Shown piece by piece: positions 397 through 52,899 of a stretch of 64,000 bases of DNA. Below the pieces are notes generated by a model. That model searched no databases. It saw nothing but the letters and a program-made list of their open reading frames with translations, and was not told where the DNA came from. Position 1 is the stretch's first letter. Each line of letters starts with the position of its first letter. The DNA lies in contig RSEE01000069.1 in the NCBI GenBank assembly GCA_003971905.1, positions 62,001-126,000 of the forward strand, in the 5' to 3' direction. The position numbers and the translations under genes are program-made. This stretch comes from Moniliella sp. 'wahieum' (taxonomy: Eukaryota).

Positions 397-941
397 TTGA
401 GATTGTGCATCATGCATTATGCACATCATGAATCATGCACATGAAGGAGTGTTGGGCGCCACCGGCCACCTCGCCTCTCGTTTCATGCTCTTCTCGCTTC
501 TCGCTTCTCGCTTCTGGTTTCTCGTTTCTCGTTTCACTTCACTTCACTTCGCGGCGCTGCCTTGTCTCTCTGCCTCCCGGGGTTAAGGATGGGCCTCTCT
601 TGTCCCCCCTGTTTTGCTTTGGCGAGGCCAAGAGGTGTGATGCATGCCCTGTTGCCCCCATGAGCGCCTACATCCACTAGCGAGGCGACGGGATAGATGG
701 GTAGCCGGTCAGTTGCTGACAGGTGGGGATAGATGAGTACGCCAATATTGGATGGAACACAGGGACGTCGCTGGACAGACCAGCAGGCGCTCAACATCCC
801 CCCGCTTCGTACTTCGCGCTCGCTCGAGTACTAACTTCAGTGTTAAACCCCCTACTATAGCAGGCCCCTTGCTCTCGAAGCGGCCGGTTAATAATCGGGT
901 ATGGCAATGCGGTGAACAAAAAAAAACAAAGAAAAAAAGAG

Positions 942-1025
942 TAGCTACCGTCGGTCTTGATCCGACGACCTGTGGGTCACAAGAGTAATATGAGCCCACC
1001 GCTCTTCCGCCTGAGCTAGGTAGCT
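942..1025 (-). tRNA. Initiator tRNA-Met (CAT) with 11-nt intron (978-988)
   Basis: Minus strand folds as AGCTACC/GGTAGCT acceptor stem (A1-U72), GCTC/GAGC D-stem, GTGGG/CCCAC anticodon stem with three G-C pairs, anticodon CAT, T-loop ATCAAGA (A54, A60) and A64. These are initiator hallmarks. Oligo-T terminator follows (A-runs at 918-938 on +). Confidence 0.93.
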
Positions 1026-1499
1026 GCTACAAGCTAACAGCATCAATACGTGAGGACTATACCCACGACGCGTCCACCTGTTTTATATAGTTAGAGCGTA
1101 CTGTTTCTCTCTCGATCCTATCGCTCATCAATCCACCAATCCATCATTGCTCATCGCTCCTCTACCTACCCTACCACATCCAGGATCACCTGGCCGTACA
1201 TGGTGCAGAGATATCCCATTCCTACGCCGCACACATCGGTCCTGCGATAAACATACCCAAGACACACCACAAGGCTACGGCATCTCCGGCCCTGGATCCT
1301 GTTCTGGTTCCGGCCCTGGATCCCCTTCTGGTTGCAACCCCCGGTTCCGGCCCTGGGTCCTGGGACCCCAGCACTCCATCTGCCGCATGCAAAGCAAGAG
1401 GAGCTTGGTCGATCTCTGTGTGCGGCTCTGTGTCCAGCCCTGGTCCCTGAGCCCCCTGCCCCTCCCCCTGGGCACCCTGCGGCACCGCGTGCGAAGCAA

Positions 1500-4400
1500 G
1501 AGAGGTGGTGAGAGAGGACTGGTGAGCGGGACCCAGCTGCGTGCTGCGTCGCGTGTTCGACGATGAGTGCGTTGACCCGAGCTCGAGGTCGGGTCGGGGT
1601 AGCCGACACGGCGGCTAGGTCCGGGTTGAGTTCCGTGAGCATTTGGACTGCCATGGTCATTGGGGTCGCGATCTGTCCCCCCAGCGAGCGAGTTTGACTC
1701 GGCCACTGAGCCTGGTATAGGTCCTGCCGTTGACCGTGGTCCTGACATGGACATGGACATGGACATGGACGTAGACGGTGGGGTTGACCTGATGTGGACG
1801 TGGACATGGACGTGGATACGTGCGCGATTGTCGCCGGTCGCGTCGGTGGCGACGCGAGACGACCGAGCTTTGTTGCAACGATTGCAGTACGTCGTCGAGC
1901 AATGTTGACTGGCCTGGGCATCATGGGCATTGGCATCGGCATCGGCATCGGCACGCTGGGTCTTAGCCAAGGTAAATTGACGTGCGCGTTCTTCCTCAGC
2001 CTGTTGTCGGCGTAGTTCAGCTTGGCGGGCTTGAGCTAGGACCGCATTGTCCTGTTGGCACTTGCGATAGGCCGTGACGAATTCGCGAAAGATGCCGAAA
2101 AAGTTCGGATGGCATGCTAGGGCCCAGTGGGCTGCGGTTGACCTTGGTTCCGAGGGTAGCGCTCTCGCCTAAAACGCCAGTGCGTCCGCATACATTCGTT
2201 CCGTCTGCTCCAGCTGGTCCATTTGCCGACGAACCTGTGCCTCGGCCGATTTGAGGAAAGGCAGCATCAGCTGGGTATACGGGTCATGCAAGTTGGCCTC
2301 GTCTTGGTTCATAATCGTTGTCAGCTCCTTGCCGGATACCTACATTGGACCGGAGCTGGGCGAGATCCTTGTGGAGCTCAGTGAGTTGCACTGTATATGG
2401 TTGGTCAGCGTTGTGGCGAGCAGGAAAAGGAAAGCAAATGGGATGGGGATAGGACGTACCTCGGCAGGCGGCGGCAGGAGGAGCAAGTTCCTGTAAGAAT
2501 TGTTCCACTTCGGGGAAGAGGGAGGCAACGGTACGCTGGATAAAGTGCAACAATGTCGTCCCATCCGACGACTTGGTATCCACCAGCTTGTTGATCGATG
2601 ATACACGGAACCCGTATGCTGCGCCTTGGAAGCCACGGGCGTTCATAAAGTTACCCACGACAAGGATAATGTTGAGCAGCCGCGCAAAGTTTTCGGCATG
2701 GAGCAACGCATCCGCTCCGTCCCGCACTCCACGACAGCCTTCCTGGATCGGTCCTAGCGCCTCGATCCATTGCACTTTCAACAAAAGGCCTTGCACCTTG
2801 GCCTTGAGGAACGGTACGCTCATCAGCCGTACCACCAATTGGTCAGCCGGGTGAAGCGTAGCCAGTTGGTCTGGTGAGGCATTGCGATACTCGCCCAACT
2901 TGCCTTTCACCTCGCTTTCCGGATAGTTGGCCAACAGTTCTCCCAAAAGAGTCTCGTCCATCACCACCTCCTCGCATTGCGCAATGGCCTCCGTCACCTC
3001 CTCTGGACGAGCCAACTTGGCCTGCGGATCCGCACTCTTCATTCTCCGCAACACCATCTCCATTCTCTGCCGCACCACGAGAGGAGGAACGATTGTGGCG
3101 CATCTGCTCGCTGCGATGGCTTGACAATCTTGCGTGCCACTTGGGCTTTGAATCCTTCCTCCATCTCCTTGAACGTACCAGCACCACGCAGACGCGCCGC
3201 CGTCTCCTGCTCGTCCAGCGTTGCCTTTCCCCAAACCGTATCTGCCGTCTGTTGCATTCCCAACTTGTCCCACATCAGCTGCTTGAGCTTCAGTGATGCC
3301 ATCTCTGTCACCGGCTTGCGGTTCTGTAGCCCCGCCATTGTCGTCAAAGATAATCCTGGGGGAGGGGGGCAGCTGGCACGCCAGCCCCGGCGGTGGAGGG
3401 GGAGGCGGAGGGGGCCTGTAACCCTGGTGGCGGGGGGGCGGGAGGCGCAGGAGGCGCAGGAGGCGCAGGAGGAGGGGGGGGAGGTGGTGGACCCGGTGCA
3501 TTCGGGGATTGGGCGGAGGTGGAGGTGGAGGTGGAGGTGGAGGCGGAGGCGGCGGTGGAGGTGGAGGTGCGGGTAAAGTTGGTGTATCACCAGGTCCAGC
3601 CGAAGAGGGAGGAGGAGGCGGAGGAGGAGGAGGAGGAGGAGGAGGAGGAGGAGGAGGAGGCGGCGGAGGAGAAGGCAGAGCTTCCGGCTCGGTTGGAAGG
3701 AGGGACGCGGATGGGGCTGGTGCAGCGTCAGCGTGGGCAGGGGAAGGTATCAGACCGACCGCATCGCCTTTGTGTAGCGTCGCACTTGGCGCGATCCCAC
3801 TGGGCTTTGGCTTTCGCTCTGGCTTTGGCTTTGAGTCGTGGGGGAGTCGGAGGTACGAGGCGGGGAAGAAGGTGGTTGGTCCGGGTGGGAAGCAGGGAGG
3901 CGCGATGGCAGCCCGTCAATGTGGGAAGGAGGGGGCTGAGGCAAGGGACGGAAGACAGAGAAAGTGGCTTGGCCTTGCCCCCGCGCACGTCGGACGGAGG
4001 GGCCCAGGTTGCCTGCATGTGCATCCGTGCTGCGGCAAAGGACGCCGGCGGGGACGAAGGGGAAGGGATGGTGTCATGTTCGTGTTCGTGGTCGTGTTCC
4101 TGTCCGTCCTCTGGGATCGGCGCGACGGGGACGGGAGACCGGGCAGGTTCGAGTGGGCGGACAGGCAACTTATCGGGTCCACGGGACCTGCGACGCGTAG
4201 CACCCGACCGTTCGATCTTTGCGATGGTAGACCGACGTTGGAGCGTCTTTTCCAACTGGGCCACCATGGCCTTACGATCCACCTGCGGCTCTGTCCGTCC
4301 CACTCTTCCTCTTCCTCGGTCCGAGGGAGCGAAGCAGGATCGACATGGGTCTGGCGAAGCATCGAGTACAGTTCCCGGTTTTGGACTTCGAGCAGTGCAT

Positions 4401-6505
4401 GACGCTCAGTGTACAAACGTTCCATCTCACGCATCTCTTGTTGCAACGCCTCTGAGTTGCCCCGCGCAGTGGCCAAGTCAGCTTCCAGTTGGGTCGATTG
4501 CTCCAACAACGATTCGATCAAGCCGGTCGAGCCCTGGAGCAGCTGGGATTCGGCTTGCCTCGAGCCTGTTCCGACTCGACCAACTGAAGCTTGAGTCGCT
4601 GCAGCTCGGTCTCGGTCCACTCCATCTTGTCCTGGTCGGCAAAGCGAGACAGTACCCGATTCCCCCAGCCCCAACAGAGAGGTCATGTCCTGCCCCGCAC
4701 CACCTTGCTTGTTGTCGAATACGACCGCCGCAATAAGCGATTCGATCAGTTGGTGGTAGTGCACAAGGTCATTGGGCTCTGCCTGTATGAGAAGGAGATG
4801 TTTGAGTCCCTTGACAAAGAAATCCAGAGCACGACTGCCGCGCACTTGGTCCAACACCGCATTGAACACGTCCAGCGGCGTCTTGAGCTGGGCCACGACG
4901 GCCGAGCTCATGTGCTGCGCAAGGTCCTCTGCGTCCTGCTTGGCTAGGCTTTCGAACACATCAATGCCCTTGTTCAACGCAGCAAGGTTAAATCCACGAA
5001 GCCGATCCATCACTTGTCGAACCCCGGCCGTATCTAGCTGGGCACGCAGGTTGACCCGCTCATGCAAATCAATCACAATGTCAGGGTCGAGGAGCGCATT
5101 GATCAGAAGCAGACTGGTGCTCGCATAGTTGTCCAGGTACTCCCGATCCTGTGCCCGTATCCCGAACCTCCTGACTGGCACCAACCCGGGATCCCATTTT
5201 GCCTCGCCCTTCAATCGTCTTCAAAACACGTTGAATCCAGAGCTCAAATCGGCTGCGGGTCAGCGGTGCGGTTTCTTGCAAAGCGTCAAAGCCACGCAAT
5301 ACCGAGGCATGCCCGGCGGGCTTGATCCAATAACAGACAAGAAACACCAGAATATCCCCCGCTTGGCGACGCGTGTTCATCGGCCCACTCAAAAGGCAAG
5401 CGACAATCTCGGTGATGGACCGTTGACTGTCCAACGCATCCGTCGCCCCTGGGGTCGAGTTGAACAGTGCGCGAAAGACCTTGATCACTTCATCTTCGAG
5501 TGCCACATCCTCATCCGTCTTGAGCTTTTGGCATGCAGATTGTGAAGAAACATGCCCAACACGGCATTCCCCTTGGACTGCACAAATGTCTCCACCCAGC
5601 TGATCGCGCACGTCCGTAGCGCCACAGAGAGCGAGGCCATATCGGACGCGGTCACGCTTCCTTCCATGATGCGCGAATGTACCACTCGGGCGAGTTGCGG
5701 GCGATGGCAAGGCGAAAGCCCTGGTGTGCAGCATGGGAACGACTCTTGCTCCGCTCGTTCTGCCCGCCAGTCAGCCAAGCGATCGTTGTAGATCAACGCC
5801 CACTTTTGTCCGTATCGAGCTTCATCAGCTGCTCGAGGCCTTGTGACCGCACCTCGTCGGTCATGCCACCGGAGAGATGGTGGAGCTGGCGCTTGGTGAT
5901 GAGCTGCCGGAACATCTCCTCCACCTCAGAAGGAGGAGGGCGGGGGAGGTGGGAAGCCAGCATCGTCCGAGGACGGCAGTGTGGTTGGGCTGAACGAGGA
6001 GGAAGAATCGAAACCATGGGAGAGGGAGGTGTCGGCGTGGGCCATGCCCGAGGCAGCTGCGGCAACAGCAGCAACAGTGGCTACTGTCCTCTCCTTGGCG
6101 GCGGACGCCGACATGCCAAAGGATGTGTAGCGGTGGCCGTGGCCAAGGGTGAAACTATGGCTGGGGCTGGGACTGGGGGCGGGGCTAGGGCCGTGGCTGT
6201 GGCTGTAGCTGTGGCTGGGGTGGGAAGAGGTTTGGTGCTGATGGAGGGCGTGGGTGCCAAGCGAAGGCAGTGTCGTCGTGGGTCTGGGACGGGGAGTGGG
6301 GCAGAGAGGCCGACTCGAAGCGGCGATGGCGCAGGCTGGGCGGTGGCGAAGAGGGAGCCGAGAGGGTGAGCTCTGGCTCGGCCGGCTGGGGAGAGCAGAC
6401 AGACGCAAAGGGGGGATTAGTAGGGGCGCAGCAGACACAGAGGGCGTGTGAGCAAAGGCAGCAGCGTACCTCCGTCTCCTGCTTCCTGCGGAACAGCGCC
6501 CGCAT
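1500..6505 (-). CDS. BNI1: Diaphanous-related formin (GBD/FH3, FH1, FH2, DAD); multi-exon, frameshifted in this sequence; 3' end approximate
   Basis: GBD/FH3: SLSVALRTCAISWVETFVQSKG, ALFNSTPGA, GRGKMGSRVGAS. Poly-Pro FH1 at about 3360-3660. FH2: KLKQLMWDKL, ILVVGNFMN, AYGFRVSSINKLVDTKS, TTLLHF, FFGIFREFVTAYRK. DAD-like LLDDVLQSLQ followed by RRHRRDRR. Likely start MRALFRRK at 6505, followed by a GTACG...CTAAT...CAG intron. Confidence 0.9.
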
Positions 6506-7090
6506 TGGTGGTGGGGCGGTGGTGGTAGTGGTAGGTTGGTGGTGGTGGTGGTGAGATCGGAGAGGTGACGCTCGGCAGAGGAGAGCGATCTGCAGTTCCG
6601 AGTGGCTCGTGACACGCACATCCCACACTCGACGTCGGGGGACGGCAGTCGACAGTGGCCCGTGCTGTCGCTCGCGCCCGTCGGCAGTGCGGCCGCTGCT
6701 CCACACACTGGCGCTGTGGCCTGCGTGGACCTGGGGGGCCAACCCTACGCCCGCCTGTTGCTCGTCACGTGACAGGCGTCATGCACAAGCACTTTCAACG
6801 TTGCTCTTCTGCTGAACTTTCAGCCGCTGCGCCGCCTGGGCGATTGAGTTAACCCCGCAGTGCGCACCAGCACCCAGCACAGCAGGCAGGCGCAATCGAT
6901 AACCGATCCGCAAGCTTCACGCGCCATCAGCTGCCCAAAGTTATATGCGTTTCGCCGCAATTAACAATCAGCTCCCACGTACTCTTCTGCTCCCACCGGC
7001 CCCCACAACAAGCTCCTGGCCATCCCGCCTCCCTCCCCGCCTCCCGTCCCTCGTCATTCCCTTCTCTCGCCCCTCCGCACAATTCCCCTC

Positions 7091-10074: not shown

Positions 10075-10870
<796 letters not shown>

Positions 10871-11275
10871 CTGGTTACACAACAACTATTTTGACAACCG
10901 TCAAGAGTTTGACTCCCTCCCTCGCTAACGGAGCCCAGTGTTGAAGAGTTTATACCCTTCCGGCCTCATTGTTGAGCAGCGGGCACGTACGTGCTTGTCC
11001 AGATGTCTGGGAGAGGGGGATCCCCCGCGTCTCAGCCACATTCGACAACTATTTCGAAACGAGCCTCAAGAGTTTGACCCCCCTTCCCGCGCTATCAGCG
11101 CTCATTTTTTAGTTCATAACCTTCCCGCCTTCGACTTTCGCTTCGCGCGGGGCCGTCGACGGCACCGAATACGCAAGGACAGACAGAGGCCGTTGGCGAT
11201 GTAACTACATCCTAGCGTCATCAGTGCATTAGCGTGCATCAGCAGAAACCCGGATGCGAACACCGAGGAAGTGGG

Positions 11276-11323
11276 GAACTGAGACTGAGTACTCAGACTG
11301 AGTTCAATACTCAGTCTCAGTTC
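11276..11323. repeat. Perfect 16-bp inverted repeat with 16-nt spacer
   Basis: GAACTGAGACTGAGTA (11276-11291) is the exact reverse complement of TACTCAGTCTCAGTTC (11308-11323). Confidence 0.9.
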
Positions 11324-11441
11324 ACTGAGTCCCCAAGCCCTCAGATTGATTTCAGATCTCACGAGTCCTCAGACAGAGGCTTGACGGTCGGATGTATGAT
11401 GCTTGAAGCTTGCAGACGGCCACCGCTACGGCGTGGCAAAG

Positions 11442-11462
11442 CTTGAAGCTTGAAGCTTGAAG
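11442..11462. repeat. (CTTGAAG)3 palindromic-heptamer array
   Basis: Three exact tandem units, plus a further copy at 11402-11408. Confidence 0.9.
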
Positions 11463-12942
11463 CTCCCAGGGGCTGATGCCAGGATTCGCACCGGGTAAAA
11501 TTCAATCTTCAATTTGCATCCACTTTAAACGCCGATGCCAAAGTGGCCGAGGGACGACGGGACCAGTGGCCGGTGAGGCCTGAGGGGATGTTACATCCCT
11601 GATGCGGTCATGGAGGTTGACGCGTTGACGAGGCTGGACGTTGGACGCGGCGTGGGGGACGCGGTGGAGCGGACGCGAGGGACGTGTGACATGTGAGCCG
11701 ATGTCGGCTGGCTGACGCGCTGACGGCATGGATGCAGGATGGGTGATGCGCGGGTGACCCGGTGACGCGGGCTGAGCGCTGCCATGCTGCCACGCTGCCA
11801 CGCTGACGCACCCGGCCAGCCACCAAGTCGGGATGGCAGACGGCGGACAGTGATCTGGTGCGTAGCTGGCACGAGAGCTAAGCGCTAGGGCTAAGCGCCG
11901 TGGAGTTAGTCCCAGGCAGCGTTTGTCCGTCGTGTGCGCAGCCACGCGGGGCGAGTGTTCTGCCTGCCGGGGGCAGCCGGGCTGTCTGGAGTTAAATGCC
12001 CAATGTCGCCGGCGGCCCACGCGCCTGCCGCAGCAGGGGGCCACTGTGCCCGGGTACATATTCCATTCGTGCCCGGCTCCTGCCGATATTCGGTTGGTGC
12101 TGGGCGAGTGCGCTGGACCGAGGACTGGCGGGGTGTCGGTGTGGTGGATCGGGGAGGCGGCTGTGCGCTGTGTGCTGTGTGCGGTGCGCGGAGGCGTGCG
12201 CTGGCCGGACGGGACCGGGCGCAGATAGATAGATTGGTTGATTAATTTGATTGGTTAGGGGATGGGTCAGGTAGGGAGGCAGTGGCGAGGGCTGCCAACC
12301 GATGGAGACGACGATGATCGATGTGGTCGGCGAGCCCTGTGGCCGAAGCTCAGGCTTAGGTTAGGCTCGATGGCCGATGGCCGATTCGATGGCCAGGCAG
12401 CTTGGAGCCCCATGTCCATGTTGCTCGTCCGCCGGCCCAGTCGTCGGCGTCTCAATCTCACATCTCAGCATCCCAGATTCCTCAGACACGCCGCCCTGCC
12501 TTGCCGCCGCACGTGGACACGGCAGGCCCAGCGCCCAGTCGCTACGAACAGGCTAGCGGCTCCGTAGCCACTGCTAGTCGCCCGCACTCAGCCAGAGCGC
12601 TGAGGCTCAGCACCTCAGCGTCACTCGCGTCACGCGTCACTAGCGTCACTCGACTTGACTGGTCCAGTCCAAGTGAGTCCGGCCGCACGCCGCAGGCTCC
12701 TGCCGCCTCTCGCCGGCCCCCGCCGACCCCTGTGACGCAGTATGCGTGACGCGTGACGTTTGAATACTGTCGTGTCACTCACTGCCTTTCTTCGGACTAC
12801 ATAACTTAGCCAGCTCATCAGCAGCACTTGCCATCCGAAGCTACCGGCTACCCCTCTTCTTCCCACCACCACCACTGCCACCACCGCTACCACACCACAT
12901 ACCCTTTGCCCTCGCCTTCCCTTCCCCCCTCGGCACCGCACC

Positions 12943-13760: not shown

Positions 13761-14778
13761 ATCGGTTCGGTCAGTGCACTCTCTGGCGAGCAAAATGGCT
13801 ATTTTTTACCTGGTCGTGGAGGATGCAGAGCGGGGCGTGCGGGATTGTGCCCGATGGAACAGGGTCCATCAGATGATGCGCAACGTTCCACACCTGTCCT
13901 CGTCCTGGCATTGGCCCGACCTACTATCCCTGCCGATCTACTATCCCCTGTAAGCTTTCGCGCACTCCGAATCGGATGATTGCAACGACATTGTGGTTCT
14001 CGTCGATAGGTGCTGTTTGGTGCATCCATGGAGGGGGCTTGGCTGCGGCGGCCATGGGCCGTTTGTAGGGATAGGGGGAAGGAGGCGAGGAGGGCGGGAT
14101 GGGACGCAGTGGAAACAGAACAGGAACACATTGCCCAAGGCGCGTCGAGCCAGGCGTGGGGGGGGGGGAAGGCTGCGCAGGAAGATGGGCCCCCTGTGCG
14201 CCTGGGATGGATGCTGCTGCTGGCACTGTGGGTCCCATCGAGGCGGCGAGGATCGAGGAGCACGCCGATCAAGCTTCAAGTTGAAGTTTCAAAGGTGCCC
14301 AGCTTAAGCCAGCGGGAAGGAGGGGCAACCTAGCACGCACACACGGGCTAGGGTTGCGGGTGGGGGGCGTGGGCGGGGCGAGTGGCGAGAAGCCAGCGGA
14401 GAGCAGGGTTAGAGTTAGATCGCAGCGGCCAAGTGCCACGAGTGAGCTGGACTGGTGATGTGCCGCGCACCCTGGCGGCGGGGCAGGGCAAGCGGGCAGT
14501 GTGTGCGGCCCAACCGGGTATTGGCGGGGGCTGCCGGTGACCGGTGAGGTGCTGGGCACGGGGCGCTGGGCAGGCATGCGGCACGCGGCCAGTGTGTGGC
14601 TGCTGCGGGTGTCTCTGCGCTGCTTTTTCTGCGTCGCTGTTTCTTCCAGGCAGCCACGCCCGTCTGCTCGTCTCTTCCCCCCACCACCCCTTCCCGCCCC
14701 CTCCCCCTCTCCCCGCCTCTCCTCGGCCGGCCCTCAGAGCCCGCCCTGCCGCACGGCCCCCGCCCCCCTTCGCCCACC

Positions 14779-14859
14779 ATTCCCTCCGAAGAACTAATAG
14801 CTTCGCCCCGCTGGGTCGCACGCTGTGCTCCCAAGCCCCACCCGCGTCCGCCTCCCTAG
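14779..14859 (+). promoter_or_regulatory. AUU-initiated upstream ORF (uCC-like) in the ODC leader
   Basis: CCCACC-ATT-CCC start context; reads IPSEELIASPRWVARCAPKPHPRPPP-stop; ends 50 nt before the ATG at 14910. Confidence 0.65.
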
Positions 14860-14909
14860 CACCGCCCGCTCCGTTTTTGAATTTTCCCTCCCCCTCCCCC
14901 CTTCGCCCC

Positions 14910-16554
14910 ATGGCTTCCCACACCCCTGCCCCCGCCCCGCGCGCGCCGCGACTGTGACGGCCGAGCAGGCCGCTCGCGCTGCCCTCAAGGCAGCCTCTCT
15001 CGATTGTCACCTCCCCTCTCGCCCGGCTCCTCTTCCCAAGAAGCCCATTGACCCGGCCGTGGCAGCCCGGGTGCAGGCCAAGCTCGATGCGCTGGCACTG
15101 GACGAGCCCGTTGCCGCGTCTCCGCTTCCCTCGCTCCAGCCGCTCTACGGTGCGGATCCGACCATGAGCAAGCCCATCTACCCTGGCACCGTCGCTGCCA
15201 ATCTGGCCGCGGTCTTGAATGGGATCGACGTGGATGAGTGCGATGTGGATGGCGAAAATGCGTTTTTCGTTGCGGACCTGTCTGTTGTGCACCAACAGCA
15301 CACGCGTTGGCTCACCGAGCTGCCCCGCATCACTCCCTTTTACGCTGTCAAATGCAATCCCGACCCGTACATGCTGCGCCTGCTCGCTGGCCTGGGCACC
15401 GGGTTTGATTGTCGTCGAATGCGGAAATTCGTCGGTGCTCAACCTGGGCGTGGCACCGGAACGCATTGTGTATGCCAACCGTGCAAGGCGCGCATCCTTT
15501 GTTCGTCAAGCCAAGCGGCAGCACGTGGAGTTGGCCACATTTGACAATGCGACGAATTGGGACAGATGGCTCGGTTCCACCCGACGTGCAAACTCGTCGT
15601 TCGCATTCTCGCCGATACAGTCGCAGCGTTATGCCAGCTCGGGCTCAAGTTTGGTGCTCCGGTAGGTGCGGTGCCCGGGTTGTTGGCCAAGGCGAAAGCG
15701 CTCAACCTGTCGGTTGTTGGCGTGAGCTTCCAGTGGGAGCGGTGCTTTGACCGCTCGCGTTCCGCGATGCGATTGCGCGTGCCCGCCTCGGCGTTCGATA
15801 TGGGTGACCAGGCTGGTTACACTTTTGACCTGTTGGATGTAGGTGGCGGATTTGAACCGCCTACGTTTGCTGCCACGGCCGCCGTGTTGCGCGAGGCGAT
15901 TGACGATTACTTCCCTCGTCGATCTACTCGTCTTCGTATTTCTACGACGGTGCGCGTCCACTTCGGATCATTGCCGAGCCAGGTCGGTTCTACGCCGCGT
16001 CCGCTTCACTTTGGCGGCGAACATTATTGCTCGTGGACGGTGCGTCGGACGCGCCTGTGCCCGAGACCGAAGAAGACTCGTCTTCGCACGGCCACGACCA
16101 CGACGGTACCGGTTCCTCTGCCACGACGGTCGCGGAGGAGACGGCAGCGACACCGCGTGATGCTGTACCAGAACGACGGGGTGTATGGTGCGTTCAACTG
16201 CATCATGTTTGATCACCAAGAGGTGGAACCCAAGGTGCTTACGTTGCAACGGAAATTTGTGTACCCTGCTGAGCGTGCGAGCGAGGTGACGCGTCGGGGG
16301 ACCTAGTTCCGTGTTCCGTCTGGGGTCCGACGTGCGACTCGATCGACTGTGTGGCACGGGCGGCTCTGTTGCCCGCTGGGCCCGGTGGGCTGGAAGTAGG
16401 CGATTGGTTGGGCTATGAGCAAATGGGCGCATACACCCTCTGTGCCGCCTCGGCATTCAATGGCATTCCTACCGCTTCGGTGCGGTACTGCCTCGGTGCG
16501 GAAGGTGAACACGCAACTGCCGTTCGGTCCGTGCTACAACTTGACTCGGCCTAG
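14910..16554 (+). CDS. SPE1: Ornithine decarboxylase; frameshifted in this sequence
   Basis: PFYAVKCNPDP (PLP lysine), GTGFDC, RIVYAN, LGLKFGA, LLDVGGGF, IIAEPGRFY, YQNDGVYGAFNCIMFDH, WGPTCDSID and GDWLGYEQMGAYT. The start is either ATG 14910 (needs one indel) or ATG 15164. Confidence 0.93.
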
Positions 16555-17164
16555 GCCCCGTCCACCTTGTTGGTCTTAAACTGGTTCCTGTGCGGCGCCG
16601 TGTCGGAGTCCCACACGAATGAGGACCCGGCATGAAAAGTGCCTGCAATTCATTAATGTTGGTTCGGAACGAGCGATTGTGCGCCGAAAAGTGGAGGGGC
16701 GGGGTGGTAGAGAGACATGCAGCTACTTCGGGGAAAATCGAGAGTTGAGAGCGGATTGCAATGTTACTAGCTGCTATCCTTGGGCTCAGCGCTCACAGCC
16801 GACTGGTATCGCAGTACCCTCTTCCTTGCCAAACTGCGGAGCCACCCAGAAAGAAAAAGAAAAAAAAGTCGTATCAACCGTTTCTGCTTTAGCAAGCCCG
16901 CATCGGAAAAGGCGACAAACTGCATGACCGGTTCGGCGTCTAACCCCACCCATAAGCAGAACCTCTCGTAGCGTAGCCTTCACCGCATGCACTCACCGTC
17001 CCATCACCGTTGAGGCCACCGTTCACCGTGTTCACCCTGTTCACTCCCATGTCCCATGCAAAACCGCGTCTGGAGTGCGGTGCGTGGTGCGCGTCACATG
17101 CCCACCGGCTCCTCTGACCCAGCTCGCCTACTCTGCATACCCGCAACAGTGCAACAGTCACAAG

Positions 17165-44632: not shown

Positions 44633-46143
44633 TCAGACCCACTTGCACCGTTCTTCCAACGGGTACACCACTGCCGTTTCTTTCCGCCCAGGGGGCAACA
44701 CGACTGCCTGTGCCGACGACTGAGCCGGGGTGAGGGGCACAGGAGAAGTGAGCGAATGGGGGAAGTAGCCTGCCGGACTGGCGCTGGTGGAAGAATAACT
44801 CAACCGCGGCACTGCCTTGACCGATGGACTGGGACCAGGGGGGAAGACGGGGTCGGCGGCCGAGGCGGAGAGGGAAGCGTTCGAGAAGCAATTCTGGGCC
44901 GGGATGACGAGGCTGGGTGGCCGCGAGCGCGCAGCCACGGTGTATGTGGGAGGAGCAAATGCCGAGGTAGACGCGACGGTGGCAGGGTAAGAGTTGCCGA
45001 CGGTCAAGGCGCGGGCGGGGCGGGTGGTGGTGTAGAGCGGTTGCTGCTGGGTCAGGCCCGGGGCCGAGTAAGTCCGAACGGGTTGGATAGGTTCTGGCAG
45101 GTAGACGGGAGAGGAGCTTGCCAGTGTAGACCGTTCCGCCGTCGGGATTGTGGGCGGGACTGGCGAGGCCGCGGATGCAGCTGCCGAACTAGGCGCAACA
45201 CACGTGAGGTAGATGTATTGGTCCAAATGAACCATAGGGTCGTTGAGGGTTTGGGTGAACCGTTCCAGCTCTTCAGGGGAGACATTGACTTGGAAGTTCA
45301 GGAAGCCGAACAATTCCCGCTCCATGTGGTTTACCTCTGAGAGTGAAAACAGTCCCTGCCCCACAATGGTCCAGGATTTGTTTGAATACGTGTCATCGCA
45401 CACAGCTTTGCTCGCCAGCATCAGCGCGCTGAGAAAGAGCGGGTGGCCCGCAGAGCCTCGGGCGGCAGGGAAATGTTGCTTGAGTCGCCTGAGTAAGTAC
45501 AAGGTCTGGTACGTCACTAGGCTTGGCAAGCGCGTGCGATATAGGGCGTATGCGACGAACTCGGCCAGGCGCGGAGCTGGCTTTTGGCTTGCGCCCACAC
45601 GGGGAGGTGAACCATCTCGGCTGCTGTCTGGGCACTCAAACAGGAGATTGACAAAGCGTTCACACAGAAGTGATATTGCTAGGAAAGGGGCCACGGGATT
45701 CAAGTCAGCGTCACTCCTTAGAAAGCAAAAGGTACAGTAAGAGAGGAGTGCCGGCACATACACTTGAATCCGTAGAAGGGATCGTAGTCTTTTTTCCGCT
45801 CACTGGCGGCGGGCTTGGTGTTGGAAGTGGCTGCAGCAGTTGACGCAGAGACAGTGGATGCGGATGCGGATGCGGATGCAGATGTGAATGCGGATACAGG
45901 GGCGGGAACATCACTGACACCAACCGTGGTGCCCGCAGGGGCAGCGGTGGTCGAAGTGTAAGCACTGATGCGAGAAGATTGTTGTTGATGCGTGTGCTGT
46001 TGAGGCGGGCCGGTTGCAGAAGCCGGGATGTAGCGGGGCATGGCAGAGAAGGAGTTGGCACGGGCCCGGGCGGCGGCCGATACCGACCAGGCGGGCACAA
46101 CGGCGGGGGCAACAGTCGCAGTGGCGGTAGAGGTCATGGCCAT
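44633..46143 (-). CDS. Pho85-type (Pcl/Clg1-like) cyclin, two exons
   Basis: DPFYG, then an intron, then LAEFVAYALYRTRL...LYLLRRLK..FPAARGSAGH.LFLSALMLASKAVCDDTYSNKSW...EVNHMERELFGFLNF (cyclin box); P/S/T-rich tail. Confidence 0.88.
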
Positions 46144-46789
46144 GGCAAACGATGGATCAGGCGCACAGGTGGGGGGATGGGAGCATGGAGGTATGGGGAA
46201 GGGAGAGGTGGGAAAGGGAAAGGAGGGCAATTGGTAGTGGAGGGGTAAGGAGAGGAGTAGAGGCGAGGATGGGACAAGACAGGGGCGACGGAAGGGCGTT
46301 GGTGAGAGCAAAAGAAAGGAGCGAAGGGCCAGGCAAGGGGTAGAAGAAAAGCGGGACGGTCAATGCAAAGAGCGAGTCTACGTACTGCGGCTGCTGGTGT
46401 CTGAGTTGTAACACAACAGGTGGCTGGCTGTGCGCTGACATGGAGACACGCCTTTTGGGTCGCGGCAGGTGGCCGTAACGCGCGTGACGCGTGACGGCGT
46501 GATGCTTCCAATCGTTGCTCATCGATGGGAAGCACAGGGTAGCACGCGGTGCACAGATCCACTGTCTGGCCATGTCCCCTGTCGCACAGCGGGGATAGCG
46601 CGCAGGGCCCGCCTCTTTCGCCCTTGTTCGGACGACCGTCCGTCCACAAGGAGTGCACAGGCGGGGTGGTGCTGGCTGCTCCCCACGGGAGCACAGACAA
46701 ATGGCGCCAGGGCCGTCGGGCGGGCACAGGCGCTCTGCCATCCTCCCAGTGCTGGCCGCGGTGAAAAGTTATCAACTTGAAGGCTGAAG

Positions 46790-46838
46790 CTTGAAGCTTG
46801 AAGCTTGAAGCTTGAAGCTTGAAGCTTGAAGCTTGAAG
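46790..46838. repeat. (CTTGAAG)7 array
   Basis: Seven exact tandem units with degenerate flanking units. Confidence 0.95.
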
Positions 46839-47032
46839 CTTGACACCTCCACAATCGTCGCTGGGCGTTGCTGGCGGCGCGCGCGGGCGCAGACCGGGGG
46901 TGGTACGTTGGGTCCCAATGCTCCGCAGAGCGAGCACCTGAGAACACACACACGGTGGTCATCGGTGCGATGATCGAAGGCTAGATGACTAGCACTATGG
47001 ACCAAATGATCGATGACTAGTAGCTAGTACCT

Positions 47033-47078
47033 AGTAACTAGTAACTGAGCGTTTAACGTTTAACGTTTAACGTTTAAC
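47033..47078. repeat. (AGTAACT)2 followed by (GTTTAAC)4
   Basis: Exact units at 47033-47046 and 47051-47078. Confidence 0.92.
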
Positions 47079-47337
47079 GCGGACATTGAACGTACTGGAC
47101 GTCTGAACGCAATTTGGAAGTAGCCCTGGGGTGGCTGTCCGTAGATCTAGACTACGGGCGAGGAACACATCCCAGCCATGCACCCTACTGGCGTGTGAGA
47201 TACTCAAGAGTACCCATCCCTATCGACTATCTCCAGCCATTGACCATCCCACATCGAACATCCCTCCCACTCCAGGTACCCTGGGGGCTGAGGCTCGGCG
47301 CGCTGAGCCTCAGCCTGAGCACTTGAGCGATTATCTG

Positions 47338-47421
47338 GATTATCGATCATCGATCATCGATCATTTACAGGCTCGAACAGGGAGCCCGTCATGTGTGATC
47401 GATGATCGATGATCGATGACC
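47338..47421. repeat. Oppositely oriented GATCATC and GATGATC arrays
   Basis: GATTATC-(GATCATC)2-GATCATT at 47338-47365 and (GATGATC)2-GATGACC at 47401-47421. Confidence 0.88.
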
Positions 47422-48412
47422 TTCTTTCCAAAGGCCCAATGTCCTGTGCATCACCCGTCAAACTGCACTTGCGAACATGCTAACGCCAATGCCGATGCCA
47501 ACGCCAATGCCGATGCCAACGCCAACGCCATCGCCATCGCCAATGCAGCCAGCCATGTTGGTTGTCGCCTGCTGGTGCCACAGTGGTTTGCGCCCCCGGT
47601 GATTGAGGTATCCCACATGACCGGGTGACCGGCCTGCTGATGGCCAAGGCGCCACGGACGCCTATCACCGATCACACAATCCCTTGCATGATTAATCCGA
47701 TCAATCAGCAAGGCAGCAATGCAATACGGATTCAATATGCAGGTATCTGGCCCAAGGCTGATGCGCTCATGACTGTGATGCAAATTTAATGTCTTGGCCC
47801 CGGCACGGGTGACGCAGTGGCCAGGACTCTGACTAGTGGTGCATGGTGGCCTCTGGTCTGCGTGTGCCGGCCTTTTGCCAGCTCCAACAGGCCGCGTGGC
47901 GCTCCGTACTCAGTTGCTCAATTCCCAGTTCATCAGGGCCTCAATATTCAATGCGTCCCTGTACTTCCTTGTCCCGGTGATAATTAGAGCGTGTGGCGGC
48001 GTTGAACTTGGGTACGTTGAACTTGTACGGTACGTTGATCCATGATCGATGGCCAATGCACCATACGTACACGGCCGGCGAGAACGAACGTCGTCCAGAG
48101 GCGTGGGACCACTGGGAAGCTACCCGTGAGACTCCGATTGTGCATATGGCCCAACTACAGCCATCAACCAACCTCATCGGTCACCGATCATCTCTTCGCC
48201 AGCCGACGCCCACCCAGCGGCTAGTCAATATTCAATCTGCAAGCTACCACCTCCAAGCTTCAAGCTTCACCGGCACCCTTCAAGCTTCACGAGCTTCAAC
48301 AGCTCCAGCCTTGAAAAGCTACATTGTCATGTTGGTACCGATGATCGATGATGCATGATGGGCAGGCACGCCCTGGCACGCTTGTGACATGTGACATGCG
48401 AAGCTTGTGAGG

Positions 48413-48475
48413 CTTGAAGCTTGAAGCTTGAAGCTTGAAGCTTGAAGCTTGAAGCTTGAAGCTTGAAGCTTGAAG
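48413..48475. repeat. (CTTGAAG)9 array
   Basis: Nine exact tandem units, preceded by (TGTGACA)2 at 48383-48396. Confidence 0.95.
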
Positions 48476-50150
48476 CTTTGAGTACTCCTCCGTACTGGGC
48501 GGGAGTGCCCATTTCTGAGCTCAGATCAATCCAGAGGCTCCACGCTCATTGAGATATGCGATTCTGAGCCCCCAACCCACATTCGCCACCAACTTACGAG
48601 TAAACGTCTATAGCCCAAAGGCGTCCATCCCCCTCTTACGAGCTTCAAGCTTCATCGATCATCAGCTTCACTGACCGCGCATTGAAGGTTGTAGTTCAAC
48701 GTGGCTAAGTCTGTGGAGCGCTCGGCCGTTCAACGCGTTCAGCACGCGCTCAACGTTGAGTTCAACTTGAACATTGTGCTCAAGCGTCATGCACATGTCG
48801 CTGTCTATAACATTACACCCTCCTTTGTACCCTTTCTCTCCAAACCCCCAGTGGCGACAAAAACACATCGATCATCCCCCTTGTATACATGTCGATCTCA
48901 CCGTGCGTTTGTACAGCGTAGTAGTGCCCCTGCCCTCCTTTCCCTTCTGCGGCACGCATCGGCATTTGCTTTTACTACCCACCGTTACCACCTATGGTTG
49001 CCCTTTCTATACTCTTCGGCCGTGGCCGGCAAACGCAGCCAGCAACATGGCACACCGTTTTTGCTCCGGTGACCGCATGATCGCGTGACCGAGGGTAACC
49101 GCGGTAATTGGAAAGCGGGGGGGTTAGGTAACCGGTAACCCCAGTGACTAGTGACCGGGAACCAATAATTGGTATAGCCAACCATACTTGCCTTCGACCA
49201 TTTGGCAATCATATGCAATTCAAAGCGATGCAAATAATCGTCGCCGGTCCCTACTCCCAAAGTGAGGACCAGCAAGGGGCCAGCCCTTCGAGGCGGTGCA
49301 ATGAGATGCGGCTTACCAACATACAATACACGTATTCCATATTCACCGGCCACCGCCTTCTCTCAGTCCCTGCCCCTCCTAAGTTTGGATGATAACGAAG
49401 ATGCGGGGCGGCGGGGACTAGTGGGCCTTGCGCATATGTCTTCGTAAGCAGACCGCCACGTGTCTGTGCTACATTTGCCATCGGCCGTTTGCAGGCGGGG
49501 CAGAAGAGGAGCGGTACTGCAGTACCACAAGGCGGCACCACCATGGAGGAGGATAAATATTCCGGTAAATCAGGACTGCCTGTCACCGGCCCGTGTGATC
49601 GGGTGATACATCCCGCTACCTTAGGCGTAACGCGTAACCTTAGGCCCCACCAGCCCGGTCGGACAGCTCGCATCGCCCCCCTCAACGCTCCGGATCCCCT
49701 CGTTATCTCACACTCTCATACCCCCTTCTCTTCATCTCTTCTTTGGCCCCCCGGCCTTACTGGTTACTAGTTACTCCGCATCGAAGTTCAATATATTCAA
49801 CGGTTCAACGTTCAACTTGAACTGTCACCATGTCACCGGCCAATGGTCCCGTTCAACGTTCATAATGTTCAACGAACGTTCAGCCACACCTAGTTGAACG
49901 TTGACTAGTGACTAGTGACTCTAAAGTTTTCATTCTAAACACCGTGCTCTGTACTTCTCAAGTGGCCTCGCGGAATACGGTACTTCTCCAGTATCAGCAC
50001 TGGCAACCAGAGGTTCCCTTCCTTCCAAATTCACTTCACCGGCTTCACCGGTAATGCTCACCACCTATCACCGTGACCCTTCAGCTTCACCACCAGTGTG
50101 AATACATGTGAAATCCTAGACATCTAATCATCTTACGCATCTAGTGATCT

Positions 50151-50178
50151 AGTCACTAGTCACTAGTCACTAGTCACT
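50151..50178. repeat. (AGTCACT)4 array
   Basis: Four exact tandem units. Confidence 0.92.
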
Positions 50179-52899
50179 AGTCATCGTCTAGTCAGTACTC
50201 AGTAGTCACTTTGCCCAGTTCTTAGCCATTTGGCCACCAGACTAAGCTTCATTTCACACACACAGGGGCTTGGCCCCACGCCAACAGCTTTGCCCACCAG
50301 CGAGCTAGTAGGCAATCGGACACCGGTAATCGGTAGCAGTAACTATAGTAACTAGTCCCTAGTCAGCGCAGTCAGCGCCTCCAACCCACTACCGTGGCCG
50401 TGGTGCCCCACCCGCCAACGAGGGCAGGGTACACAAGCCAACATACCAACGTCCAACTCCGGTAACCGATAACACCAATATAGTACCGCCACTGAAGGAA
50501 AGGCGCTCCCTGCCTCTTTTGCACCCTACATGTCTTGCCCAACCCACGTTTCTCCACGATTGGATTTTGAAGCTAGCTTGAAGTTTGAAGCTCGAATTGC
50601 TTTGAAATTTGATGTCCAGACGTTCCACGTTCAGGATTTGACCCAAAGGAAGGTTTCCTTCACGCTTCATCGACTTCATCGCCGAGGCTCCGGGCTCCTT
50701 GCTGCATGTAGCATGCCGCTCCATTCCCTGGTGCGCGTTGCGGTATGGAGAGACTTCGGCCCATGGGGAGGGGGGAGTGGGAGGCGGCACGCGAGATGAG
50801 ACGTGTCGAGTTTGGAGGGCAACGGGTGCCATATGGTGCATGATGCACAACCCAATGATTAATTCGATGATCGACGTGGTTCAGTCGCCGGTGAGACTGT
50901 CTTTGCATACATTGGTTCTTCGACGACGGTCGCGTTCAAACGCGCATCGTTCGCCGTTGGAAACTCTCGGCCTGCCGCCACGCGTCACCCTCGGCTTGAT
51001 GCCAAGAGAAATCCACCTCCAGCCCATCAATAACGTGAACAGTTGAGTTCAATGAAATCAACGTTCAAGTATTCAACCCTTCAAGCCTCAAGCTTCAAAC
51101 CTCCAAAAGCCAGCATTCCTCCATACATGTACAGTGCCGTCGCCATTGACAGGGGTGCCCGGTGCGTGGGCTTTGAGCACAGATCCAACTTGAAGTGTGT
51201 ATAGTGTAACTACGGTAATTGGTACGAACTATAGTAGAAACATGCCCGTAAAAGAGCGAGTAATTGCGATCATCGATATCAGGCACATGATGATGTGATC
51301 TGTGAAGAAATGCTGAAAGGAACAAAGTAGCGGAAACGAAAGAAGTTTTCAAAACAAGGTTGTTTTTCGCTTATAACAGGCCTAATGCGTAACGGGTAAC
51401 GCGTAACGTGAGAGTGAGATCTGAGACTACGCTGTCGGAAATTGGAAGCTTCGTATAAAACCCTCCACACCCACTGAACAAGGCACTGTGGCTAAAAGTT
51501 ATTAGCTACCGGTTACCACTAGGCACGGAAGTCACTCCTTGCCCGGTGTACGTATTGAGAATTGGGCTTCAGTAACACGTAACGGCCCTTGTAGGCCTTC
51601 GGTCTTTTAGTCCTCACAGATATCAGATCTTAGACAACAGGTCTACCTTCTTCGAACCTAACATGCAACAGCATAATACAGGCACAAAATAGTACCACCC
51701 GCCTATTTGACCACTATCATTGAATGATCGAAATGATCGTGGTAATCGATATCCCGATAATTGACAATGCAACGGTTACCTGTGAGTTTTTATAACCACA
51801 CCTTGCTCCCCACTTCTCTAACAAAAATGTATGATCTTCGGCTCTATAACCTATCTACTACATGGTATGGCGTTTGAGGACATGCAACCGTAACATGCAC
51901 GAAATGAGCGCTGAGGGGCTGAGCGTAAGCCATACACTTGTGGTGGAAGAAGGGTGTCGCAGCAACCGACCAAAGAGTGGCTCTCTTTTTCTGAAGAATA
52001 ACTAGTCTCAACTCGATCTCAACCCCATATATCCGAGGAATCCGTTGACTTGTATCTCCTCCTTCAAGACTTAACGTTTAATGTTTGTATCTGTCGATCA
52101 CATCACAACTGCGTGAGATTCAACACGTTCAACGTTCGTTCACGTGTTCACCTGTCCATATCCGAGACGTTCAACGTCCGTCACTTCCTCCCTCTTGAAC
52201 CCCCCTGGTGGCTTCTCATGTGCTTACTCTGCTGTTATATATTGCCCGCCGGCCTCATGGCCTGACCCACCGAATCTGAGATCTGAAACGCATTTCGTCT
52301 TTTTACCTGTATTCCCGGCGATACTGATGACTGAGATGCACTGATGAGATCCATGTGTGTGAACGTGGTGAACCGAGAGAAGTGAGATGCTGTGAACCCC
52401 CATCTGCATGCGCCCAGATAAAACCCACACCCGCCCTGCATCCGCATAGATCACCCGGAAAACGTATGCTGCTGCGGGGGCACAGAAATGATGGTTTCCG
52501 AAACAAAATCTATTGGTTCCCGGTCCGAAACACTCTGCGGATCAGAGATTTGACCTCTAAGATCTGACCCCCGTCATACCGGGCGAATTGCCCAAACTCG
52601 TATCTGAGGGGGATGTGCGTGCATCTGCTTATACCCCCTATTCTGGGTTCGTCTCTCCGTCTCCACACCGCCCCACACTGCATACACAGTTTACATCCTG
52701 ACGGCCTGAGGCCTGACGGCTCGACGTCTCCTTTTTCTAATTGATCTAATTTTGCAGGCCATTATATCCCATCGAAGATTTCATCGTGACGCTGAAGCGC
52801 TGAAACGCTGAAAGTATGCTTTTGAAAAGAACAATATACTCTCTCAAAGGCTTTATTCACACAACAGTAGCAATGAGGATAGGTCATTGGTAGAACGAT

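Follow-up and report, generated by a model that had tools for sequence, protein, structure and literature searches.

The DNA examined here is a stretch of 64,000 nucleotides from contig RSEE01000069.1 of Moniliella sp. 'wahieum' (positions 62,001 to 126,000 of the contig), which is referred to in its entirety as the window; all coordinates given below are positions within it. Its intergenic DNA contains head-to-tail arrays of 7-bp units (heptamers), and in 26 of the 46 exact arrays the unit is an odd palindrome whose three central bases are always T-N-A (where N is any base) and whose flanking arms are free in sequence but complementary to each other. This repeat rule is real and statistically overwhelming, and it is apparently undescribed. 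We do not regard the arrays as a mobile element, and there was no indication that their sequence is read specifically. The account that we prefer, tentatively and with less than even confidence, is that they are non-coding heptamer microsatellites resulting from a structure-biased mutational process, in which slippage or duplication by 7 bp would be favoured where the slipped strand can form a weak hairpin that has T-N-A as its turn.

Census of the heptamer arrays

An earlier note on this DNA, made by reading the sequence, had listed a number of these arrays, and 18 of its 18 statements of unit, coordinate and copy number proved to be exact when they were verified in register. The arrays confirmed in this way are those of CTTGAAG in 3, 7 and 9 copies (at 11442, 46790 and 48413, respectively), TGTGACA in 5 copies (29958), AGTCACT and GTTTAAC in 4 copies each (50151 and 47051), and the two-copy arrays of TGTCACA (18842), GATGATC (29860 and 47401), AGTGACT (49907), AGTAACT (47033), GTTCAAC (49803), CGTGACG (12745 and 46483), GGTAACC (49127) and CATGATG (29928). 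Two imperfect cases, CGTAACG-GGTAACG-CGTAACG at 51388 and CATCATG-CATTATG at 408, were also as described.

A census that was independent of this list was carried out over the whole window, in which every exact array of period 7 was collected if it spanned 14 bp or more and its unit was non-trivial. It yielded 46 arrays, all head-to-tail, with 2 to 9.6 copies of the unit. An odd-palindromic rotation of the unit exists in 26 of them, and the core was T-N-A in 26 of these 26, the cores A-N-T, C-N-G and G-N-C being found in none. Based upon base composition, the chance that a given unit is a palindrome with a T-N-A core is 0.020, and that it is a palindrome with one of the other cores 0.098. The probability of observing at least 26 T-N-A palindromes among 46 arrays is thus 3e-32, and that of observing no palindrome of the other kinds is 0.009. 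The exact palindromic arrays involve 16 distinct units if the centre base is counted and 9 distinct pairs of arms, and further arm pairs are seen among single units. The 26 arrays are as follows.

11439 to 11464: (CTTGAAG) array, 26 bp
12626 to 12640: (CGTCACG), two copies
12744 to 12758: (CGTGACG), two copies
14534 to 14547: (GGTGACC), two copies
18841 to 18855: (TGTCACA), two copies
28701 to 28715: (GTTAAAC), two copies, preceded in phase by GTTCAAC
29855 to 29878: (GATGATC) array, 24 bp
29928 to 29945: (CATGATG) array, 18 bp
29956 to 29994: (TGTGACA) array, 39 bp, predicted single-stranded DNA hairpin of -12.8 kcal/mol
46481 to 46496: (CGTGACG), two copies
46785 to 46843: (CTTGAAG) array, 59 bp
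47031 to 47046: (AGTAACT), two copies, at the end of an imperfect CTAG+TAN run from about 47016
47050 to 47079: (GTTTAAC) array, 30 bp
47342 to 47364: (GATCATC) array, left arm of an inverted pair (census and folding)
47396 to 47419: (GATGATC) array, right arm of the inverted pair (census and folding)
48254 to 48269: (CTTCAAG), two copies
48339 to 48352: (GATGATC), two copies, running in phase into ATGCAT (ATCGAT-G-ATGCAT)
48383 to 48398: (TGTGACA), two copies
48412 to 48478: (CTTGAAG) array, 67 bp, the longest (census and folding)
48641 to 48654: (CTTCAAG), two copies, running in phase into ATCGAT
49127 to 49140: (GGTAACC), two copies
49625 to 49638: (CGTAACG), two copies
49803 to 49816: (GTTCAAC), two copies
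49902 to 49920: (AGTGACT) array, 19 bp, preceded in phase by AACGTT
50149 to 50183: (AGTCACT) array, 35 bp
52703 to 52716: (CCTGAGG), two copies

The palindromic heptamers are concentrated in three regions.

46400 to 52800: main dense region, about 6.4 kb of non-coding DNA upstream of the cyclin gene, with the lowest G+C content in the window; exact T-N-A palindromic heptamers cover 12.1% of it
11200 to 12800: second dense region, intergenic, 9.2% covered; it also contains relatives of period 8 and 9 (TGA plus a palindrome and one or two extra bases)
28600 to 30050: third dense region, flanked on one side by the start of a minus-strand Hsp70-like gene and on the other by a plus-strand open reading frame (ORF) from about 30043; 8.7% covered

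The coverage elsewhere in the window is 1.7%. When tandem copies were collapsed, the three dense regions contained 101 T-N-A palindromic heptamers, as compared to 30.4 +/- 5.1 in dinucleotide shuffles (z = 13.9), and the same count showed no excess in the rest of the window. Palindromic heptamers with the cores A-N-T, C-N-G and G-N-C, against which the earlier note had proposed to compare the T-N-A class, were at expectation in the dense regions. As these regions were delimited by eye from a plot of density, their enrichment is in part circular, a reservation that does not extend to the census of arrays. The claim that the repeats follow a symmetry rule with T-N-A cores exclusively is borne out. 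Without collapsing, the T-N-A palindromic heptamers of the dense regions total 150 and comprise 54 exact tandem copies, 46 near-tandem copies and 50 isolated units; the excess being mostly of tandem and near-tandem copies, the rule is mainly a property of tandem copies.

The arrays were also correctly said to lie outside of recognisable coding sequences: none of the 26 overlaps an ORF that is supported by a Pfam match. The identity between bases at a lag of 7 in the dense regions is 0.334, versus 0.24–0.27 at the neighbouring lags, with echoes at lags 14, 21 and 28, and these regions show no autocorrelation at lag 3, the coding-type signal that is seen in the rest of the window. No protein domain was found by Pfam in the ORFs of at least 110 aa between 46 and 55.3 kb, and the 84 ORFs of 50–109 aa in the same interval gave one Pfam match, which was below the family cut-off. 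An Rfam search of the 64 kb identified no known RNA family under the arrays, its sole match being a tRNA at 17165–17273. A search of 46–54 kb for larger repeats and inverted repeats revealed nothing beyond the arrays themselves.

Specificity for period 7

If all arrays of two or more exact copies are counted, period 7 has 46, as compared to 5, 9 and 1 for periods 8, 9 and 10, respectively; if three or more copies are required, 13 remain at period 7, none at period 8 and 2 at period 9. By our estimate from the probability of pair matches, about 5 arrays would be expected by chance at period 7. Palindromic units are likewise confined to this period, since they account for 1 of 77 arrays at period 6 and for none of the 5 and 9 arrays at periods 8 and 9, and arrays of perfect palindromes are absent from the window. 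The earlier note was justified in stating that ordinary slippage is not the account, as slippage driven by base composition fails to explain 26 palindromic arrays in 46 where 2% would be expected. An ordinary microsatellite whose spectrum of motifs follows composition was rejected on similar grounds: the copies are head-to-tail, as they should be, but the motif spectrum and the excess at period 7 are not those of such a repeat.

The distance from one TGA trinucleotide to another is most often 7 (57 pairs), with distances of 8 (16 pairs) and 9 (7 pairs) forming a shoulder. Relatives of period 8 and 9, consisting of TGA or TCA with a palindrome of 4–6 bp and one or two extra bases, are found at 11600–11800, 52760–52810, 50034–50051 and 50361–50378, examples being GTTGACGC (two copies), GCTGACGC (two copies), GCTGAAGC-like units (three copies), CTTCACCGG (two copies) and AGTCAGCGC (two copies). 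In view of these relatives, the spacer may be one or two bases long.

Anatomy, orientation and decay of the repeat unit

The most economical description of the unit is that of a six-base palindrome, A-NNNN-T, followed by one free base, which is equivalent to T-N-A plus a palindrome of four bases. The junctions between units had been described earlier as A-NNNN-T palindromes, and this was confirmed: with arrays collapsed, such hexamers are about 3-fold enriched in the dense regions (65 versus 21 expected in the main region), where hexamer palindromes of the classes T....A, C....G and G....C showed no enrichment. Different hexamer palindromes also abut in phase, with 5 cases at an offset of 7 versus 1 each at offsets 8 and 9 (e.g., ATCGAT-G-ATGCAT and AACGTT-G-ACTAGT), and within the main region the centre base was the same in 4 of 4 such cases. 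In 21 of the 26 palindromic arrays the centre is occupied by G or C (p = 0.003), so that the core is T-S-A (S, G or C) rather than one with a fully free centre. Additionally, none of the 26 arrays has arms consisting of A and T only (p = 0.0015 when counted per array), which fits a need for base pairing.

The 20 period-7 arrays that are not palindromic form a separate class, in which 9 units consist of purines or of pyrimidines at 6 or more of their 7 positions (p = 3e-4). Together with the 26 palindromic arrays, 35 of the 46 arrays thus belong to classes that are prone to form non-B DNA. T-N-A is present in 3 of the 20 non-palindromic units, which is at or below the approximately 27% expected by chance; T-N-A is therefore tied to the palindrome and shows no sign of being preferred as a target independently of it. 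The palindromic share was 17 of 33 for arrays shorter than 21 bp and 9 of 13 for longer ones, and hence two copies suffice for the bias to be seen.

In regard to orientation, the strand carrying a purine at the centre was the same in 25 of 44 pairs of neighbouring arrays with different arms (p = 0.23). This randomness makes a role of the arrays as stop codons, at which the earlier note had hinted, or any other strand-specific role, unlikely. Neighbouring units with the same arms shared their centre base in 111 pairs; in 4 pairs it was changed to its complement and in 11 it was changed otherwise, 9 of these changes being transitions. Fold-back synthesis or template switching, also put forward in the earlier note, predicts complement flips at the centre, and what is seen is 4 flips among 15 changes versus 9 transitions (9 of the 11 that are not complements). 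The variation at the centre base thus gives no support to template switching or inversion as its source.

The 7-mers adjoining a palindromic unit were identical to it in 38 cases, differed by one mismatch in an arm in 26, by a mismatch at the centre in 4 and by a symmetric, compensated double change in 4. With 26 single arm mismatches versus 4 compensated doubles, there is no sign that symmetry is restored after mutation, and compensatory evolution of the arms was rejected, as ascertainment by itself could yield the 4 symmetric doubles. The decay of the arrays looks neutral, and it provides no support for their being selected as sites for a factor that reads them. The ends of the arrays in the window showed no clear T-N-A boundary, fixed phase or polarity. 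A homotypic cluster of transcription-factor sites was likewise rejected, because a fixed recognition sequence is absent, the constant part being T-(N)-A with free arms.

Predicted folding

As a single strand, the 67-bp CTTGAAG array is predicted to fold with -24.6 kcal/mol (z = -8.0 versus shuffled sequences) into 6-bp stems with G.G mismatches and a T-G-A triloop. This is the general form predicted for the long arrays, in which 6-bp stems are interrupted by an N.N mismatch every 7 nt and closed by a T-N-A triloop. The opposed GATCATC and GATGATC arrays (47335–47422) are predicted to fold with -29.5 kcal/mol (z = -6.4), and two shorter palindromic arrays fold marginally better than their shuffles (z = -1.6 and -1.7). 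For the non-palindromic arrays of CCATTCC and GAGAGGA no fold was predicted (0 kcal/mol).

When all 256 possible odd-palindromic heptamer units were modelled as four-copy strands, the mean hairpin energies were -4.2 kcal/mol for T-N-A, -4.6 for A-N-T, -7.4 for C-N-G and -8.1 for G-N-C cores, T-N-A units being the weakest. A plain ranking by hairpin stability was rejected as an explanation, since it covers the missing C-N-G and G-N-C cores but not the missing A-N-T. In the in vitro and genomic work of PMC7441554, structured short repeats are described as stalling the replicative polymerase and as being constrained in length, and the weakness of the hairpins with T-N-A cores fits such a constraint.

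Origin of the arrays

From what is shown above, i.e., the statistics of the census, the placement of the arrays in non-coding DNA, the way they are predicted to fold, their random orientation and a decay that looks neutral, we infer a mechanism of slippage and escape from repair with an upper limit on hairpin stability. Tandem duplication or slippage by 7 bp would be the dominant short-repeat process in the intergenic DNA of the host fungus. An A-NNNN-T hexamer with an unpaired spacer base would allow a slipped or displaced strand to fold upon itself, forming 6-bp stems with an N.N mismatch and a T-N-A turn. Folded loops evade repair, and if such intermediates are stabilised or escape loop repair, foldable units would be duplicated and expanded far more often than others. 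Units that form strong hairpins (C-N-G and G-N-C) and perfect palindromes of period 6 would not persist, because they stall replication or are deleted, and arrays once formed would decay through ordinary point mutation. The random orientation, the transitions and the uncompensated mismatches together give the process a strand-symmetric and neutral appearance. A structural bias of this kind would explain why the units fall into two classes, why T-N-A is coupled to palindromy, why the orientation is random and the decay neutral, and why palindromic arrays of period 6 and the cores C-N-G and G-N-C are missing. The hairpin idea of the earlier note survives in this weakened form, in which the slipped strand would make a hairpin of marginal stability that turns at T-N-A.

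Several points weigh against this explanation. The nearest-neighbour energies do not separate T-N-A from A-N-T, yet the arrays number 26 and 0, and some of the units that do occur with G+C-rich arms (e.g., CGTGACG with -8.3 kcal/mol) are more stable than many that are absent, so that a simple window of stability fails. Slippage aided by hairpins accounts neither for the total absence of A-N-T cores nor for the survival of the stable T-N-A units with G+C-rich arms. As the bias is present at two copies, a mechanism is needed for the first duplication, for which hairpin-assisted slippage is not obviously sufficient. The test for arms of A and T only is weak when made per distinct arm pair (n = 9, p = 0.11). 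From the in vitro work of PMC7441554 it is argued that structure constrains expansion and does not promote it. Lastly, all of the conclusions drawn here derive from one window of 64 kb and from indirect metagenome evidence.

The dedicated process that had been proposed earlier did not emerge from the analysis, but the absence of A-N-T, the survival of G+C-armed units and a bias that sets in with the first duplication leave room for an enzymatic process of this kind. It is conceivable, although on balance unlikely, that an undescribed sequence-symmetric DNA transaction builds intergenic DNA in this basidiomycete lineage by duplicating 7 bp at a time. Candidates for it would be a dimeric nuclease or recombinase-like activity making cuts staggered by 7 nt at T-(G/C)-A, or fold-back self-priming at T-N-A turns. 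Its signatures would be the coupling of T-N-A to palindromy, the lack of A-N-T at equal predicted stability, the abutment in phase and the bias at two copies.

A different possibility, to which we give a comparably low probability, is that the arrays are selected structural or cis-regulatory elements of promoter-like intergenic DNA, acting through extrusion of hairpins or cruciforms or through a symmetric factor that reads T-(G/C)-A at a spacing of 7 bp, with possible roles in keeping chromatin open or in marking regulatory regions. The arrays are indeed concentrated in three intergenic regions, at least one of which (28.6–30.05 kb) is a divergent 5' region and the largest of which lies upstream of the cyclin gene, and the intergenic DNA at 16.3–19.7 kb, between convergent genes, has mostly non-palindromic heptamer arrays. 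The preference for G or C at the centre (21 of 26, p = 0.003; core T-S-A), the in-phase abutment of hexamer palindromes (5 at offset 7 versus 1 and 1 at offsets 8 and 9) and the strong predicted folds, that of the inverted array pair among them, are consistent with selection, and an asymmetry between T-N-A and A-N-T would be natural for a protein. However, arms that are free (9 arm pairs in the exact arrays) are not explained by any protein that reads bases, the orientation is random and the decay is uncompensated, and isolated units are only modestly enriched (50 of 150), most of the excess being tandem or near-tandem.

The arrays could also be footprints of cut-and-paste DNA transposons whose repeated insertion and excision added 7 bp each time, an explanation that we regard as improbable. 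In one variant the target duplication is of 7 bp and excision proceeds via hairpins on the flanks, the opening of which adds palindromic nucleotides and leaves arms that are free and self-complementary; in the other, an element of the PIF/Harbinger type makes a 3-bp duplication of T-N-A and leaves 2+2 terminal bases behind. In accordance with such an origin, the increment is exactly 7 bp, the bias is present from two copies on, T-N-A with a 4-bp palindrome is the expected residue of a 3-bp duplication and two inverted-repeat tips, and the arrays cluster, with different units abutting in phase, in the main region with an identical centre base in 4 of 4 cases. All of the 36 candidates for inverted termini with flanking duplications in the window were, however, chance matches or self-matches of arrays, and the ORFs of 46–55.3 kb (84 of 50–109 aa in addition to those of at least 110 aa) contain no transposase or other domain. 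At least 9 different 4-bp palindromes would require as many terminal dinucleotides, the presence of T-N-A in 3 of the 20 non-palindromic arrays argues against a target preference for it, the array ends are without a T-N-A boundary, and the arrays reach 9–10 copies. An artefact of assembly or base calling, to which tandem repeats are prone in some assemblies, is the least credible explanation of all, as 16 different units are found with unique flanks in three separate regions and with point-mutated copies, and (CTTGAAG) in at least 3 copies is present in at least 121 independent metagenome stretches.

Related arrays in metagenome contigs

These stretches were obtained by scanning metagenome contigs for (CTTGAAG)3, and flanking DNA was taken for 80 of them; for the counting of arrays, 102 loci were used after one duplicate locus had been dropped. 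Among 160 period-7 arrays in these loci other than those of the query, 7 were T-N-A palindromes, which is not significant, and the ratios at the level of heptamers were near background in the flanks. In 18 loci sharing a record-name prefix (120 kb, G+C 0.45–0.54), 6 of 22 non-query arrays were T-N-A palindromes (p = 2e-5, for a grouping that was chosen after the data were seen), viz. GTTAAAC, TTTGAAA, ATTCAAT, CCTGAGG, CCTCAGG and GTTGAAC. This set of contigs is probably fungal. One of its loci (L057), which is eukaryotic, has a block of TGA-centred words next to the GTTGAAC array, and the nearest protein clusters of an ankyrin protein encoded by it are mostly from Basidiomycota, a weak lead. 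The rule thus seems to exist, in diluted form, in at least one other fungus, and not around (CTTGAAG) arrays in general.

Locus L057 also carries an apparently intact ORF of a non-LTR (non-long-terminal-repeat) retroelement at 16918–20019 on the minus strand, with reverse transcriptase and RNase H and a poly-A tail (poly-T at 16467–16487), which in a protein search matched unnamed reverse-transcriptase proteins exclusively; the block of TGA-centred words and the GTTGAAC array are located just past its 3' end. Six other loci (L009, L014, L033, L038, L042 and L064) are of high G+C content and look bacterial in our judgement, made without a gene or taxon check. They contain intergenic arrays of AGCTGCA, AGCTACA, GCGGCAA and AGCTTCA, often as opposed pairs around a short spacer (e.g., AGCTGCA beside AGCTTCA), an arrangement that is the known heptamer-hairpin architecture of bacteria.

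Genes and genomic setting

The G+C content of the window is 58%, and the genes identified by Pfam matches on ORFs are eukaryotic and fungal. The map given here is a rough one, in which positions are those of Pfam matches to ORFs, a codon-usage scan having been too weak for gene models.

1 to 393, plus strand: C-terminus of an amine oxidase
about 2287 to 6700, minus strand: formin
from about 8767, plus strand: PB1-domain gene
14801 to 16303, plus strand: ornithine decarboxylase
from 19777 upward, minus strand: chitin synthase
ATG read at about 28587, minus strand: Hsp70-like gene
33974 to 35204, minus strand: armadillo-repeat gene
44636 to 45799, minus strand: cyclin
55222 to 55919, plus strand: Tom22
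56194 to 59449, minus strand: MMS19
from 61191, plus strand: ketopantoate hydroxymethyltransferase

The best named relatives of a fragment of the chitin synthase are from the Ustilaginomycotina (Exobasidium, Tilletia, Testicularia and Moesziomyces), with 83–84% identity, and unnamed records reach up to 91%. A protein search with a fragment of MMS19, which is less conserved, gave no match above 38%. On the evidence of these sequence comparisons, the host of the arrays is placed as a basidiomycete of the Ustilaginomycotina.

The cyclin and Tom22 genes are separated by about 9 kb (46000–55300), an interval that has the lowest G+C content in the window (0.485–0.53) and is unusually long for an otherwise compact stretch; its part at 52.8–55 kb is without heptamer arrays. 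The interval may serve as an extended regulatory region, contain an unannotated gene or RNA, or represent a special chromosomal region. Where the ornithine decarboxylase and chitin synthase genes converge (16300–19700), the heptamer arrays between their 3' ends are mostly non-palindromic, with CCATTCC in 4.7, GAGAGGA in 5.9 (within a 100-bp AGAGAGG run) and CCACTTG in 3.3 copies, as well as CTCATGC and TAAGGTG, and the tRNA gene of this stretch (17165–17273) contains an intron. Beside the dense region at 11.2–12.8 kb, there is a short Hsp70-like fragment (10366–10925, plus strand; E = 7e-6), accompanied by an antisense Pfam match to NAD-GH. Antisense matches of this kind tend to go with Hsp70 genes, and the fragment may be a gene fragment or an exon. 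The minus-strand formin gene contains coding triplet and hexamer repeats (GGA, GGAGGT, GGCTGG and TGG) at 3441–3675 and 6159–6553, which are taken to encode proline-rich (FH1-type) and N-terminal low-complexity parts of the protein.

Comparison with known repeat systems

Open-access papers and preprints were searched for fungal heptamers that obey such a palindromic rule and yielded no account of them, although an older or paywalled one is possible. The same literature yielded no description of the heptamer repeat of Ustilago maydis that the earlier note had named as what would be the closest analogue. Surveys of repeats usually consider units of up to 6 bp, and hence a rule specific for heptamers would have been missed by them. 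If the rule extends over the whole genome, it would provide a clean natural experiment on how the secondary structure of DNA shapes the birth and growth of repeats, with 64 allowed versus 192 forbidden units and a contrast between T-N-A and A-N-T that the standard energy rules do not predict. The arrays could in that case serve as markers for promoters of these fungi and flag fragile or hairpin-prone sites in them.

Elements of the Tc1/mariner type leave an odd-palindromic footprint of 7 bp, and those of the P superfamily make 7-bp duplications. The arrays resemble such footprints and palindromic target duplications in that their units are short, odd-palindromic and free at the centre base, and in their tandem duplication of fixed length. 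Footprints have one fixed sequence per family, however, whereas the arms are free here, and the window contains no element, transposase or bounded structure. DNA polymerases are also able to extend oligonucleotides of palindromic repeats in vitro by self-priming, a reaction known as hairpin elongation, by which tandem repeats of palindromic units lengthen if their hairpins have marginal stability, as we propose for the heptamers. Unlike the fungal arrays, hairpin elongation is an in vitro reaction of thermophilic enzymes, and we know of no link between it and fungal genomes.

The nearest case among fungi is that of palindromic microsatellites of the form (A)n-spacer-(T)n, which are described from Fusarium mitochondria in PMC7218506. 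They share with the heptamer arrays a fungal host, an intergenic location and a palindromic organisation, and are said there to vary in length by slippage; they are, however, mononucleotide runs in mitochondrial DNA and have neither a unit of 7 bp nor a T-N-A rule.

For bacteria, PMC4692102 records that heptamer repeats are in excess. The bacterial heptamers (cyanobacterial short tandemly repeated repetitive sequences (STRR), the G-rich repeats of Xanthomonas and Nostoc and the TAACTGA repeats of Beggiatoaceae) are similar to those described here in their 7-bp period, intergenic location and inverted pairs of arrays folding into hairpins, and the rule bears on why 7 bp is favoured as a repeat length in bacteria as well as in the host eukaryote. 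The bacterial arrays, however, consist of one or a few non-palindromic units per genome, a palindrome resulting from opposed arrays, whereas each of many units is itself palindromic here and the host is a eukaryote. Arrays of the bacterial, STRR-like type were accordingly rejected as an identification, as there are 16 distinct units and one clear opposed pair (47342–47364 and 47396–47419), the orientation being otherwise random.

A close structural likeness is to the C-N-G triplet repeats (CAG/CTG and CGG/CCG), which also have an odd-palindromic unit that is self-complementary save for its centre and form hairpins with one mismatch per unit, and for which structure is held, in PMC7441554, to influence expansion. 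As in other hairpin-forming quasi-palindromic repeats, the unit is self-complementary except at its centre in the 26 arrays, and the long arrays are predicted to fold better than their shuffled counterparts. In contrast to the triplets, the repeated unit is of 7 bp instead of 3 and comes in dozens of forms, its cores are T-N-A alone with C-N-G absent, and the arrays are short (2–10 copies) and intergenic.

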